A stretch of 64,000 bases of DNA from Escherichia phage vB_EcoM_11B_SA_NWU. Both the position numbers and the translations under genes were made by a program. The stretch is taken from the sequence record OR062527; one strand, 5' to 3'. The notes under the pieces are model-generated. The model saw only the letters and a list, made by a program, of their open reading frames with translations. It was not told the DNA's origin and did no database searches. Below are positions 15,859-61,972 of the stretch, piece by piece; within the stretch, counting starts at the first letter, position 1, and every line of letters begins with the position of its first letter.

Positions 15859-15866
15859 TATTTATA
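15859..15866 (-). promoter_or_regulatory. late promoter -10 element TATAAATA upstream of soc
   Basis: Exact TATAAATA on the minus strand about 31 nt before the soc ATG. Confidence 0.65.
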
Positions 15867-15868
15867 AC

Positions 15869-16009
15869 TTACAATTTAGCTGCTTTCCAGAGTTGTTCAA
15901 TAATCTCTTGGTCTATTTCTTTAGTTATTTCATTACGTAATAAGGCAGTAAGGGCTTTCGCCCTTTTCTTATTCAACTTTTTGAGCTGACGCTTATTTAA
16001 ACGAGCCAT
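15869..16009 (-). CDS. basic micro-ORF (46 aa), soc.x-like
   Basis: Hand-translated MARLNKRQLKKLNKKRAKALTALL...; its ATG overlaps the gene 56 stop (TAATG); GAGGT Shine-Dalgarno. Confidence 0.45.
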   Translation of the reverse strand: MARLNKRQLKKLNKKRAKALTALLRNEITKEIDQEIIEQLWKAAKL

Positions 16010-16527
16010 TAATAACCTCGGTCTTGACGAGCGAAGTTTTCGGCATTTTTCAGATAATAAAGTTTAAAGATTTCTTCAGCTGACATTCCAAGAGCAATAA
16101 ATTTATTCATAAAAAAGTGAAACTGATCAATTAGTTCAAATTTAATTTCAAGCTGATCTTCGGGAGATAAATCTTGAATTTTCTTGGATTGCATTTCGGA
16201 ATAACGTTTCTTCCAAGGTTTCCATACAGCAGAAGCTTCTTTTTCACCATTACTCATACCACCGAGAGAAGTATATAGCTCGCGAGTTTCGTCTGCGATA
16301 TAATCGTCTTGGTTTCGCAGCCAAGCAAGAACTTCTCCTGCAGTTTCAAGTGAATCAGGATGACGATTTGTTTCTGGTTTATCATTAGCCAAACGAATCT
16401 GTAAATGCCGCTGCATATCAAGCATAACCTGCAGTGGGTCAATATTGTGCATAATATTCTCAGCATATGCACGATTTGCTTTATCAACGCCTTCGATCAA
16501 ATGAGCACATTCATTAAAGTGAGCCAT
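16009..16527 (-). CDS. 56: dCTP pyrophosphatase gp56 (about 172 aa; start at internal Met, not the 203-aa track ORF)
   Basis: Sequence from MAHFNECAHL onward matches T4 gp56 as recalled; AAGGAAA Shine-Dalgarno 7 nt before this ATG; MotA-type middle promoter upstream. Confidence 0.85.
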   Translation of the reverse strand: MAHFNECAHLIEGVDKANRAYAENIMHNIDPLQVMLDMQRHLQIRLANDKPETNRHPDSLETAGEVLAWLRNQDDYIADETRELYTSLGGMSNGEKEASAVWKPWKKRYSEMQSKKIQDLSPEDQLEIKFELIDQFHFFMNKFIALGMSAEEIFKLYYLKNAENFARQDRGY

Positions 16528-16561
16528 TATTTTTCCTTTCAATTCATGGGTTAGTAGATTA

Positions 16562-16585
16562 ATTATACAATAAATATATAAAGCA
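16562..16585 (-). promoter_or_regulatory. MotA-dependent middle promoter for gene 56 (TTGCTTTA, 11 bp, TATAAT)
   Basis: MotA box and -10 with canonical spacing about 35 nt upstream of the gene 56 ATG. Confidence 0.6.
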
Positions 16586-16598
16586 ATAAGGAGGACAT

Positions 16599-16799
16599 AT
16601 GGTACAAAAATTAATGGCACTTGTTAATGCCATAAAAGGTAATAAAAAACGTATAGCTTTTACTATTTCTGCTATGGTAGGAATTTTACTCTGGAACTTT
16701 ATTCTATCACCAATTGCAATTGCGCATGGTGTTAATATTCCAGTAGTTACTCTTGATACATTCGTAGATTTAGCATTTGCTTTAGTTGGGTTAATTTAA
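16599..16799 (+). CDS. small hydrophobic membrane protein (66 aa) on the opposite strand, convergent with gene 61
   Basis: Only plus-strand ORF filling an otherwise gene-free gap (16528-16795); AAGGAGG Shine-Dalgarno 4 nt before ATG; two predicted transmembrane segments. Confidence 0.45.
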   Translation: MVQKLMALVNAIKGNKKRIAFTISAMVGILLWNFILSPIAIAHGVNIPVVTLDTFVDLAFALVGLI

Positions 16800-17824
16800 A
16801 TCTTAGCATATTTAGATAGCCGCATTTTAGCCATCAACCCCTGGGCAATATTATTTTTCATATATTCCATAATTTGTTCAGGGGTTGCACCTTCCTTTCT
16901 AATCATATCATTAACATCTTTTGATTTCCAGGGAGATTTATCCCAAAACATAACCCTTTCTCCTGCATCAACTAATTTAGTCATTCGCTTAATAGTGTCA
17001 GGATGACGAGGTTCATTATCTAAGACCCACACACGCCTATCTTTAAATGGAACAACTTCTAGGTCTAATTGACCGCCCGTAATAGCTATACCATTTTCAA
17101 TAAAAAGTGAATCTATAGGTCCTTCTAGAACATATACATCGCCATCTTTAACTCGTTCGACTCCATATATTTTTGTTGCCTCAGGATAAGCTTTAATGGT
17201 GATATATTTTTGAGGAGCATCTTTCTTTAATGCACGTCCTTGAAAAGACTCAGCTTTTCCATTAGCATTATAAATTGGAATAACAAGACGAGGCTCAGAA
17301 ATTTCCTTTTTGTATGTTCCCGGTGCTATGCTATTAACTAATTTAGGCCATTCGGTTGTAAACCAAAGATATTTCCATTTATCCTTTGGAATACAACGAG
17401 CTTTTACATATTTTATAATTGGATGGTCTTCCGCCAGTTTATCTAATCTAACACATGACGGAAGAGATTTAATTATTTTCTTCTCAGGTTGTTTAGGAAG
17501 TTCTTTAGGTTTTTCTACTGGACGACTTTTACCTTTTTCTTTTCTTATTTCAAAGATATACTCACGATATAAATCAGGTTCAAACTCCTTTAAATATATT
17601 CCGATTGGTGCGTGATAGTTACAGTTATAACAATGAATATTTCCTTCATTATTATCACCATAATACCATCCACGAGCTTTATTCTGATCGGTTTTTGAAT
17701 CTCCACAAACGGGGCATCTAAACCGCAATTTAAAAGTTGAACTATTATTTACTTGTGTGAATTTAGGTAAATGAGCCAATGCACGATACGCAAACTCATT
17801 ATCAATCCAAGGTATTGATGACAT
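16796..17824 (-). CDS. 61: DNA primase gp61 (342 aa)
   Basis: Zinc-finger CPVCGD...CYNC; length 342 aa as in T4 gp61; adjacent to the 41 region. Confidence 0.9.
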   Translation of the reverse strand: MSSIPWIDNEFAYRALAHLPKFTQVNNSSTFKLRFRCPVCGDSKTDQNKARGWYYGDNNEGNIHCYNCNYHAPIGIYLKEFEPDLYREYIFEIRKEKGKSRPVEKPKELPKQPEKKIIKSLPSCVRLDKLAEDHPIIKYVKARCIPKDKWKYLWFTTEWPKLVNSIAPGTYKKEISEPRLVIPIYNANGKAESFQGRALKKDAPQKYITIKAYPEATKIYGVERVKDGDVYVLEGPIDSLFIENGIAITGGQLDLEVVPFKDRRVWVLDNEPRHPDTIKRMTKLVDAGERVMFWDKSPWKSKDVNDMIRKEGATPEQIMEYMKNNIAQGLMAKMRLSKYAKI

Positions 17825-17826
17825 TT

Positions 17827-17991
17827 TTACTCTTCTTTTTCTTTAGATTCCTCTTTTTTCTTTTTAGGAATCTGTTCAGGACCTTTATTTACTACAGCCC
17901 CTGACGTTGTTCCAGTAGAGATATTTTCAGGATTACCACCTGAATCTCCAGCGACCATATCTTCTTTAATAAATTCTTTATATGTTTTCAT
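17827..17991 (-). CDS. micro-ORF (54 aa) with capsid-targeting-sequence-like N-terminus MKTYKEFIKE and Lys/Glu-rich tail
   Basis: Hand-translated; AGAGGT Shine-Dalgarno; N-terminus resembles the internal-protein CTS MKTYQEFIAE. Confidence 0.45.
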   Translation of the reverse strand: MKTYKEFIKEDMVAGDSGGNPENISTGTTSGAVVNKGPEQIPKKKKEESKEKEE

Positions 17992-18036
17992 ATTAACCTC
18001 TATTCATAAAAGCATTAAAAATTTGGTCATCAATAG
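17989..18036. repeat. direct repeat copy 1 (about 48 bp, roughly 94% identical to copy 2)
   Basis: catattaacct(c/t)tattcataaaagcattaaaaatttg...caataga spans the 61.1-like C-terminus, stop, ribosome-binding site and next ATG. Confidence 0.7.
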
Positions 18037-18349
18037 ATGGCGCAGTAATATTTTCTGCATCATTTAGCAAATCATTAATTTCATCAGATAGCATAACACA
18101 TGTACCTTTATTTCCTGTAATTGTTACTGCACAATTACGAACGTTTTCTTTATCAAATTTTAGGTTAATATTTTCGTAGTGAAAATCCTTTAATGCCGAA
18201 TATATCTTTAAAATGAAATTGTCTTTTACTACAATAAACCCAACCTCACTATTAAAACGCGGTTCATGGAAACTGTAATAAACCTTTTCATCTATAAAAT
18301 CGTATGAAATTTTTTCCATTTTTAAATATGAAAATTCAGAACTATACAT
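17993..18349 (-). CDS. 61.1-like protein (118 aa)
   Basis: Minus-strand ORF; C-terminal 14 codons and the downstream junction duplicated at the end of the next gene. Confidence 0.55.
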   Translation of the reverse strand: MYSSEFSYLKMEKISYDFIDEKVYYSFHEPRFNSEVGFIVVKDNFILKIYSALKDFHYENINLKFDKENVRNCAVTITGNKGTCVMLSDEINDLLNDAENITAPSIDDQIFNAFMNRG

Positions 18350-18394
18350 ATTAACCTTTATTCATAAAAGCATTAAAAATTTGATCGTCAATAG
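18347..18394. repeat. direct repeat copy 2
   Basis: Same junction module at the 61.2-like C-terminus. Confidence 0.7.
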
Positions 18395-18983
18395 AAACTT
18401 TTACTTTAGGCTGTTCTTCAAACGGTAATTCATATCCACATATTACAATTTTGTGATCGATACCAAAATACACAGAAGCAATATTATTAATATTATTTTC
18501 AGTGAAATCTAAATCAACATCAATATCTTTTTGACTAACGCTCAAAGGATAATTAATACGAATAATTCGATTATCTTTAACAAAGATTCCACCGACATAC
18601 TCTGTGCTGCGTTTAAAGTTTACACGTTTCCTAAATGAAAAATATTCAGGTTCTTTATGGGCTCGACTCATAGGACTTAAAGTGTATTCCGAATATGAAA
18701 TATCAAATCCTACACCTTCAATATGAGCCAAAGTGTCATGATTAAACCAATTATAATCGTATGCCAAATCCATTAAATTGTAATATGTGAAAGGCACCGG
18801 ATTAACATCATATGTTGTACCTTTAAAATCTGCCCAGGCAACGATTTCGTTATCTTTAACAATTACAAAAATTGTGCCAATAAGATATCCACGGTTATTT
18901 TCATCAGGCGTTATATTATAACATTGTGCATCAGGAAATTTACCGTATTTAAACGGTGGATTTTTGTGCATATAATAAATCAT
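18351..18983 (-). CDS. 61.2-like protein (210 aa); position of T4 anti-DarT factor AdfA
   Basis: Synteny between 61 and sp; C-terminus IDDQIFNAFMNKG shared with the 61.1-like ORF. Confidence 0.5.
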   Translation of the reverse strand: MIYYMHKNPPFKYGKFPDAQCYNITPDENNRGYLIGTIFVIVKDNEIVAWADFKGTTYDVNPVPFTYYNLMDLAYDYNWFNHDTLAHIEGVGFDISYSEYTLSPMSRAHKEPEYFSFRKRVNFKRSTEYVGGIFVKDNRIIRINYPLSVSQKDIDVDLDFTENNINNIASVYFGIDHKIVICGYELPFEEQPKVKVSIDDQIFNAFMNKG

Positions 18984-43325: not shown

Positions 43326-43374
43326 AATAAAATCCTTACCTTAAATAGATAAGGGTATTTATTATTTTCAAGTA

Positions 43375-57412: not shown

Positions 57413-57454
57413 ATATACCCCTTTAGTTAGATAAACCTATTTATAACTTTTGCA

Positions 57455-61411: not shown

Positions 61412-61610
61412 CAGTACCTAAATCATATTCAACTAAACGAATAGGTTCATGAATGCCATATTCTTGAACAGAAATTTCTGTCGTAGGATAAATTCCATCA
61501 ATATCCCCCATATTCCATGCTTCATTAAATTGTTGCTCACCTGAATTACTAAACCACTCAGTGAAAGCATTTAGTACATCTTCAGAACCTTCAATAATTA
61601 TCTTTGCCAT
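61389..61610 (-). CDS. small acidic protein (73 aa)
   Basis: Minus-strand ORF. Confidence 0.5.
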   Translation of the reverse strand: MAKIIIEGSEDVLNAFTEWFSNSGEQQFNEAWNMGDIDGIYPTTEISVQEYGIHEPIRLVEYDLGTGEEVKYD

Positions 61611-61972
61611 TACAAACTCTCGGTAAAGGTACGAGCGATAACGTCGCGCTGCTGTTCCGGAGTCAGAGAGTTAAAGCGAACTGCATAACCGGATACACGG
61701 ATGGTCAGCTGCGGATATTTTTCCGGATGCTTAACTGCATCTTCCAGAGTTTCACGACGCAGAACGTTAACGTTCAGGTGTTGACCACCTTCAATTTTAA
61801 CTGTAGGCTGTGGCTCAATTTCAATTTCACGGGCATGCAAACCATAGAAAATTTCTGGGTCTACAAAAGAGTCCTCTTTAAAAGTTTTAGAAACGATAAT
61901 TCGTGCTTGAATACCATCTTCAAAATAAATAGTACCTTTGTGTGTGCCTTCAAGAATTTGATATGCTTTCAT
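61610..61972 (-). CDS. GrcA/YfiD-like autonomous glycyl-radical cofactor protein (120 aa), chimeric
   Basis: C-terminal about 66 aa ([18 protein letters not shown]...[31 protein letters not shown]) carries the glycyl-radical motif and is GC-rich; the N-terminal half is AT-rich. Confidence 0.75.

Follow-up and report, generated by a model that had tools for sequence, protein, structure and literature searches.

dam.1, a conserved and probably late gene of T-even phages for a predicted membrane protein, lies opposite the early genes in the gene 56–gene 61 gap

The short gap between gene 56 and gene 61 of the phage DNA analysed here holds a 66-codon ORF that runs against every early and middle gene of the window (the whole 64-kb stretch of DNA under study). 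A sequence-only reading of this DNA had drawn attention to the ORF. It turns out to have been catalogued already, as dam.1 in T4T, as RB32ORF030w and as family PHROG 2024, and it is a real, conserved T-even gene with a predicted membrane product and probably late transcription. We think it likely that the gene is at once genuine, late and membrane-associated, and we rate any specific role for its protein as unlikely. What the present analysis adds is comparative evidence of coding, a conserved late-promoter motif and a description of how signals are packed on the two strands. The T4 reference annotation (NC_000866/AF158101) leaves out this gene, which shows purifying selection in seven Tevenvirinae genera and is apparently late; screens and omics built on that annotation miss it. 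dam.1 is a cheap target for knockout or tagging in the best-studied phage; our understanding of T4 biology is unchanged unless its protein shows a clear phenotype.

Setting and earlier records of the ORF

The window comes from a Tequatrovirus T-even phage, 95–97% identical over the 15 kb compared to REP1, wV7, Ozark and RB14, with the early genes on the minus strand (Table 1). Gene 56 has its true start at the ATG of MAHFNE, the automatic ORF call running on to an upstream GTG. The gap between genes 56 and 61, put at about 270 bp by the sequence-only reading, measures 268 bp, and all the elements which that reading described there were found where it had placed them. These include a hydrophobic plus-strand ORF of 66 codons with an AAGGAGG Shine–Dalgarno sequence and a stop overlapping that of gene 61. 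The palindrome TTAA (16796–16799) is common to the ORF stop TAA (16797–16799) and to the gene 61 stop (complement of 16796–16798). That reading called it the one convincing plus-strand gene in the window; among the 32 plus-strand ATG-ORFs of at least 60 aa found there, it is the sole bearer of a Shine–Dalgarno sequence within 20 nt upstream.

Table 1. Features of the locus and related sites. Positions are those of the window, except for the slot cargo, which is given by the named locus.
Feature	Position	Strand	Basis and remarks
46-aa ORF in the place of segF	15869–16009	−	very basic, MARLNKRQLKKLNKKRAKAL...; start overlaps gene 56 stop
Gene 56 (dCTPase/dUTPase)	16009–16527	−	ORF; called 56 in relatives; divergent from dam.1-type ORF
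56–61 gap	16528–16795		read from sequence
−10 element TATAAT of gene 56 middle promoter	16567→16562	−	sequence; 11 nt from MotA box
Segment in place of T4 16826–17724	16568–16587		alignment
Predicted gp55-type late promoter AATAAATA	16569–16576	+	consensus match and conservation in homologous loci
MotA box TATTGCTTTA of gene 56 middle promoter	16588→16579	−	sequence, consensus fit
Shine–Dalgarno AAGGAGG	16588–16594	+	sequence; 4 nt 5′ of the dam.1-type ORF ATG
dam.1-type ORF, 66 aa, MVQKLMALVNAIKGNKKRIAFTISAMVGILLWNFILSPIAIAHGVNIPVVTLDTFVDLAFALVGLI	16599–16799	+	ORF, PHROG 2024 match, dN/dS, AF2 model; predicted small inner-membrane protein
Terminator-like hairpin and UAAUUUUUGU tail	16604–16633	−	pattern scan; antisense to ORF codons 2–12
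Gene 61 (DNA primase)	16796–17824	−	ORF and annotations of relatives; convergent with dam.1-type ORF
118-aa ORF	17993–18349	−	ends SIDDQIFNAFMN[RK]G
210-aa ORF	18351–18983	−	ends SIDDQIFNAFMN[RK]G
Other ATAAATA copy	15859–15866	−	heptamer scan; TATAAATA (15866→15859) of soc
Other ATAAATA copy	43356–43363	−	heptamer scan
Other ATAAATA copy	57438–57445	−	heptamer scan
Other ATAAATA copy	61924–61931	+	heptamer scan; AATAAATA
Slot cargo, fPS-65 (Yersinia phage, L029)	535–1095
Slot cargo, L019	4192–4966
Slot cargo, L024	3454–3937
Slot cargo, L030	1172–1477
Slot cargo, L033	1153–1446

The ORF product matched PHROG 2024, a family with no assigned function, over its full length (E = 1.5e-31, residues 2–66 on profile positions 1–65 of 65). 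The ORF is named dam.1 in the T4T record HM137666 and RB32ORF030w in RB14 and RB51, the RB14 entry carrying the note 'similar to RB69ORF029w'; a recent T4 assembly includes a Pyrodigal call of it, assigned to PHROG 2024. In T4 itself (NC_000866) a copy 97% identical to the window protein lies at 17738–17938, in the dam–61 gap, and no annotation was found under the match in NC_000866, AF158101, the 1984 record X01416 or the T2 RefSeq. The T4/T4T gene is thus the same gene, on the same strand, with the same primase neighbour and TTAA stop overlap. It differs in having the dam cassette upstream and G as its −13 base, whereas the window lacks dam and its ORF adjoins the gene 56 promoter. Copies in wV7, RB68, UFV-AREG1 and BYEP02 are 100% identical to the window ORF.

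For no member of PHROG 2024/dam.1 is a function recorded, and two labels attached to individual copies were rejected. One is 'putative head morphogenesis protein' in the T6 RefSeq (NC_054907), a record in which several similarity notes point to unrelated proteins: gp56 is noted as 'ferredoxin', soc as 'terminase small subunit' and an 85-aa ORF as 'DNA primase/helicase'. The other is 'Holin', given in UniRef to the copy in phage OE5505 (91% identical), a label that comes without supporting evidence.

Coding evidence and the late-promoter motif

A tblastn search, proposed in the sequence-only reading as a check of conservation across T4-like genomes, matched the ORF in 692 phage records, with 90–100% identity in Tequatrovirus and about 44–56% in Mosigvirus and Gaprivervirus. 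Seven genera carry it (Tequatrovirus, Mosigvirus, Gaprivervirus, Karamvirus, Moonvirus, Jiaodavirus and Kanagawavirus), and it stands tail-to-tail with gene 61 on the opposite strand in T4, T6, RB14, Mosigvirus, Gaprivervirus, Karamvirus, Jiaodavirus, Kanagawavirus and metagenomic T4-like contigs. Pairwise dN/dS values, determined by the Nei–Gojobori method for window–T4, window–RB14, window–Mosigvirus, window–Gaprivervirus and Mosigvirus–Gaprivervirus, ranged from 0.14 to 0.37, and second codon positions were the least variable.

A profile search of 1.84 billion representative proteins returned eight matches, T4-like phage proteins only. Four of them are just 22–29% identical to the window protein, each in a T4-like context: three come from contigs bearing Soc, dUTPase_2, T4_Spackle and DnaB_C genes, and the fourth from a 745-bp contig with the same convergent overlap. 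All four lie on the plus strand and are convergent with primase or, in lineage L024, with a 124-aa ORF followed by primase, and the 4-nt TTAA stop overlap is mostly retained. At this level of identity the reading frame survives in-frame changes of length. In the family alignment W32, P38 and G44 are invariant and L8, N33 and P48 nearly so, and an upstream Shine–Dalgarno-like GGAG or GGAGG is present in all 15 homologous loci. By these comparisons the dam.1-type ORF is a protein-coding gene under purifying selection.

Three copies depart from the pattern. In T6 (NC_054907, 2501–2503) the ATG is replaced by ATT, and the RefSeq start is Met6, which has no Shine–Dalgarno sequence; the match in phage Shinka is limited to residues 17–66; and the OE5505 copy has a three-residue deletion within the transmembrane helix. 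These are possible natural hypomorphs, and the ATT start of T6 together with the partial match in Shinka suggests that dam.1 may be dispensable.

In T4 all early and middle RNAs run in the same direction, and it is only among late RNAs that both strands are represented (Geiduschek and Kassavetis 2010, PMC2988020). A plus-strand dam.1 should therefore be late. The T4 late consensus is TATAAATA at −13 to −6, with A(−13) as its commonest variant (9 of 50 T4 sites; PMC2988020), and the window carries AATAAATA upstream of the ORF. The heptamer ATAAATA is found 19–40 nt 5′ of the ATG in 13 of the 15 homologous loci, amid flanking sequence that is not conserved. Karamvirus and Moonvirus, the remaining two, have ATTAAATA instead, a weaker match to the late consensus, and the T4 copy likewise has a weaker match, GATAAATA. 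A pattern scan of the plus strand from 16300 to the ORF start found no sigma-70-like promoter. Late timing is inferred from the motif together with the polarity of the T4 early and middle transcripts.

The heptamer is scarce in the 64-kb window, with two copies on the plus and three on the minus strand where 16–24 per strand are expected, a depletion of about five- to tenfold. Each minus-strand copy directly precedes a Shine–Dalgarno sequence and ATG; the genes concerned are soc, an endonuclease VII (gene 49)-like ORF and rI.-1/rI, classical late-transcribed genes in T4. Ahead of soc, record X01416 annotates a promoter P(L) 15.32. On this combined evidence dam.1 is very probably transcribed from a gp55-dependent late promoter, with a predicted start near 16582; our search of the published literature found no transcript, ribosome-footprint or proteomic evidence for it. 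soc offers the nearest comparison for the arrangement, being likewise a short gene within an early/middle block with a late motif just 5′ of its Shine–Dalgarno sequence and ATG, but it shares a strand with the early genes around it and its product is a soluble capsid decoration protein, whereas dam.1 is on the opposite strand and its product is a predicted membrane peptide. Separately, the second plus-strand copy of AATAAATA is antisense within an nrdD-like glycyl-radical C-terminal ORF (61610–61972) and is not followed by a Shine–Dalgarno sequence or an ATG; it may represent an antisense late promoter or have arisen by chance.

The predicted protein and its possible roles

The AF2 model, built from a 21-sequence alignment (pLDDT 77.5), has helices at residues 2–14, 16–42 and 52–63. 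In all family members the best 19-residue hydropathy is 1.8–2.6, with a cluster of Lys/Arg residues just N-terminal to that segment. In the window, Mosigvirus and Gaprivervirus proteins the N-terminal flank has five Lys/Arg and none or one acidic residue, and the C-terminal flank has no basic and two acidic residues, so that by the positive-inside rule the N-terminus should be cytoplasmic. The C-terminal 25 residues, which follow a conserved HG..P turn and contain a conserved Asp/Glu, are themselves hydrophobic (C-flank GRAVY +0.7 to +2.1, 0–2 basic residues), and the protein ends ALVGLI. This segment could rest in the outer leaflet, or it could turn back to make a two-helix hairpin. Mid-helix, the conserved Trp-Asn-Phe/Tyr (W32-N33-F/Y34) and P38 suggest specific helix–helix contacts. 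Searches of Pfam, NCBIfam, PADLOC and PDB sequences, and of BFVD with Foldseek, gave only the family itself or noise. Reading function from the neighbourhood was also tried and given up: dam.1 is a lone plus-strand gene among early genes in every case, and its neighbours are therefore uninformative.

We propose the following sequence of events. After the start of replication, RNA polymerase carrying gp55 would initiate at AATAAATA and produce a transcript with a leader of about 17 nt and a strong Shine–Dalgarno sequence. The 66-residue product is predicted to enter the inner membrane with the lysine-rich N-terminus on the cytoplasmic side, as one transmembrane helix (about residues 19–42), the HG..P turn and a short hydrophobic C-terminal helix with the conserved acidic residue. 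We infer that it may act late by intramembrane helix–helix association, with itself or with a partner. On the opposite strand the same DNA would supply the untranslated 3′ end of the gene 61 mRNA, including a terminator-like hairpin, and beyond it the MotA-dependent gene 56 promoter. The dam-less layout would be one of the states taken by an insertion hot-spot that adjoins the ORF on its upstream side.

Bitopic bacterial regulators such as MgrB and AcrZ, which act by binding a larger membrane protein, resemble this predicted product in having about 50–70 residues, one transmembrane helix, a basic cytoplasmic N-terminal flank and a short extracytoplasmic tail. They share no sequence or profile similarity with dam.1, however, which is phage-encoded and probably late. 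At its boldest, dam.1 might be an overlooked late gene across the seven sampled enterobacterial Tevenvirinae genera, encoding a membrane microprotein with a distinct late role; it might, for example, tune the timing or inhibition of lysis or the integrity of the envelope by binding a phage or host protein within the membrane. Such a role would be gated by the two-strand arrangement, in which the late promoter lies in the MotA promoter and the primase terminator in dam.1's own coding region. Stated in that full form the proposal is quite unlikely to be right.

A holin, antiholin or other lysis-timing protein, forming or modulating membrane lesions, would fit the small size of the product, its predicted membrane location (hydropathy and the AF2 helix) and its predicted late timing, which are also the points of likeness to small phage holins, and the OE5505 copy bears the 'Holin' label. 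The conserved mid-membrane Asn could, by analogy, drive oligomerization, an effect established for model helices. No Pfam or NCBIfam holin profile matched, however, the best being GTA_holin_3TM at E = 0.1 in one distant member only. The C-terminus is hydrophobic and lacks the highly charged tail typical of holins, and the neighbours are gene 56 and primase, with no endolysin, spanin or other lysis-cassette linkage; in these three respects dam.1 differs from small phage holins. In addition, t, e, rI, rIII and the spanins already explain lysis in T4. We give a lysis function of this kind little chance.

The opposite strand and the insertion slot

The locus illustrates how tightly signals are packed on both strands in T-even phages. 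On the minus strand, about 165 nt beyond the gene 61 stop and just ahead of the gene 56 promoter, lies a hairpin of eight pairs with a 4-nt loop (16633→16614), opposite codons 6–12 of the ORF. It is a modest stem, with a fold of −8.9 kcal/mol and z = −2.16, and 9 of 200 shuffled sequences fold as well. The T4 hairpin is identical, and several distant loci have a hairpin with a U-run at the corresponding position; the feature is weak in Mosigvirus and conserved in some lineages only. The fPS-65 record annotates a terminator at this position. The hairpin may mark the end of gene 61 transcripts, its position being that expected for the terminator of the gene 61 unit. On the plus strand a pattern scan found no intrinsic terminator for about 4.5 kb 3′ of the ORF, so that, barring Rho, a late transcript could run on antisense to gene 61. 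Rfam gave no match in 16300–17000.

The main product of the locus might on this basis be an RNA: either a late plus-strand transcript that is antisense to gene 61 and shuts off the primase mRNA, or a type I toxin–antitoxin pair in which the gene 61 3′ UTR silences a toxic peptide. The missing plus-strand terminator would allow the former, and a gene 61 transcript ended at the hairpin would be complementary to nearly the whole ORF. T4 does transcribe both strands at several sites, at different times (PMC2988020). Against such a role, early and late transcripts are separated in time, the protein itself is under selection, as purifying selection on its sequence and the residues conserved at 22–29% identity indicate, the only toxin-like match (Ldr_toxin) was at E = 0.1 in one distant member, and Rho would probably terminate an antisense RNA that is not translated. 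A principal role for RNA is accordingly improbable.

The sequence-only reading had instead suggested antisense or divergent regulation between the ORF and the middle promoter of gene 56, at a locus associated with a replication origin; in T4 this promoter is the oriA primer promoter. The MotA promoter consensus is WWWTGCTTtA at 12 ± 1 bp from the −10 element, and the T4 counterpart, P56/69, is an identified middle promoter (Hinton 2010, PMC2988021). The window promoter fits both consensus and spacing with TATTGCTTTA, 11 nt and TATAAT. Its MotA box overlaps the ORF Shine–Dalgarno sequence by 1 nt, which agrees with the back-to-back placement that the sequence-only reading had noted, and the late motif AATAAATA sits inside the 11-nt spacer of this opposite-strand promoter; the two promoters overlap or abut in Mosigvirus and Gaprivervirus too. 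The juxtaposition is not kept, however, in T4, T2 and several other genera. In T4 the ORF is about 0.9 kb from P56 with its own motif GATAAATA, and regulatory coupling is unlikely because the 0.9-kb dam cassette parts the two promoters there. The distance is larger still in fPS-65, and CkP1, KLB31, L019 and L024 have one to three ORFs in between; in each case the ORF retains its own motif. Middle and late promoters are, besides, active at different times. An origin-linked unit thus appears very improbable. There is next to no chance that the ORF is a fortuitous one in a region conserved merely for the gene 61 3′ end, the terminator and the promoters: with 32 plus-strand ORFs of at least 60 aa in the window its length alone has no significance, and several reference records leave it unannotated, but a dN/dS well below 1, a frame kept through length changes, invariant or near-invariant W, N, P and G and a Shine–Dalgarno sequence in every locus argue for a real gene.

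The absence of dam beside the ORF can be viewed in comparison with T4. The order there is soc–segF–56–dam–gap–61, with only dam and the ORF between 56 and 61. Of the three elements that the sequence-only reading placed in the T4 gap, dam is indeed there; gene 69/segF is found beyond gene 56, on its soc side, and oriA is annotated at 16763, inside the 5′ end of gene 56. That reading was also right that the window has no dam or gene-69-like ORF: searches of the 64-kb window with T4 Dam and SegF (tblastn) gave no match, the best E values being 1.4 (Dam) and 6.8 (SegF). By alignment, about 0.9 kb of T4 (dam and its upstream region) is replaced in the window by 20 bp. The absence is not unusual: T6, RB14, Mosigvirus, Gaprivervirus, Jiaodavirus and others likewise have the order 56–ORF–61 without dam. 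At ≥90% identity the ORF is present in 502 phage records and T4-type Dam in 182, and about 64% of Tequatrovirus records lack a T4-type dam. Among T4's relatives the dam-less layout is a common polymorphism, and most of them have it.

The slot between gene 56 and the ORF varies widely, being empty or holding dam, dam with a 186-aa ORF (fPS-65), a MazG-like ORF or two to three small ORFs; in CkP1, KLB31, L019 and L024 one to three ORFs are inserted. Since the cargo differs among phages while the junction of the ORF with its downstream gene is nearly fixed, the slot just upstream of the ORF appears to be an insertion hot-spot, which the presence or absence of dam marks.

Sequence divergence changes abruptly across the region. 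Gene 56 is 74% identical in nucleotides to T4 gene 56, and the segment with the ORF and gene 61 (16588–18037) is 97.7% identical. A sharp mosaic boundary thus falls at the locus where T4 has the homing endonuclease segF (T4 gene 69*). The place of segF is taken in the window by the 46-aa ORF of Table 1, and this slot too is variable, with a 66-aa ORF in RB14 and two small ORFs in T6. Beyond gene 61, the adjacent 118- and 210-aa ORFs, with their shared C-terminal motif, look like tandem paralogues of T4 61.2, and RB14 annotates one of them as 'similar to gp61.2'.
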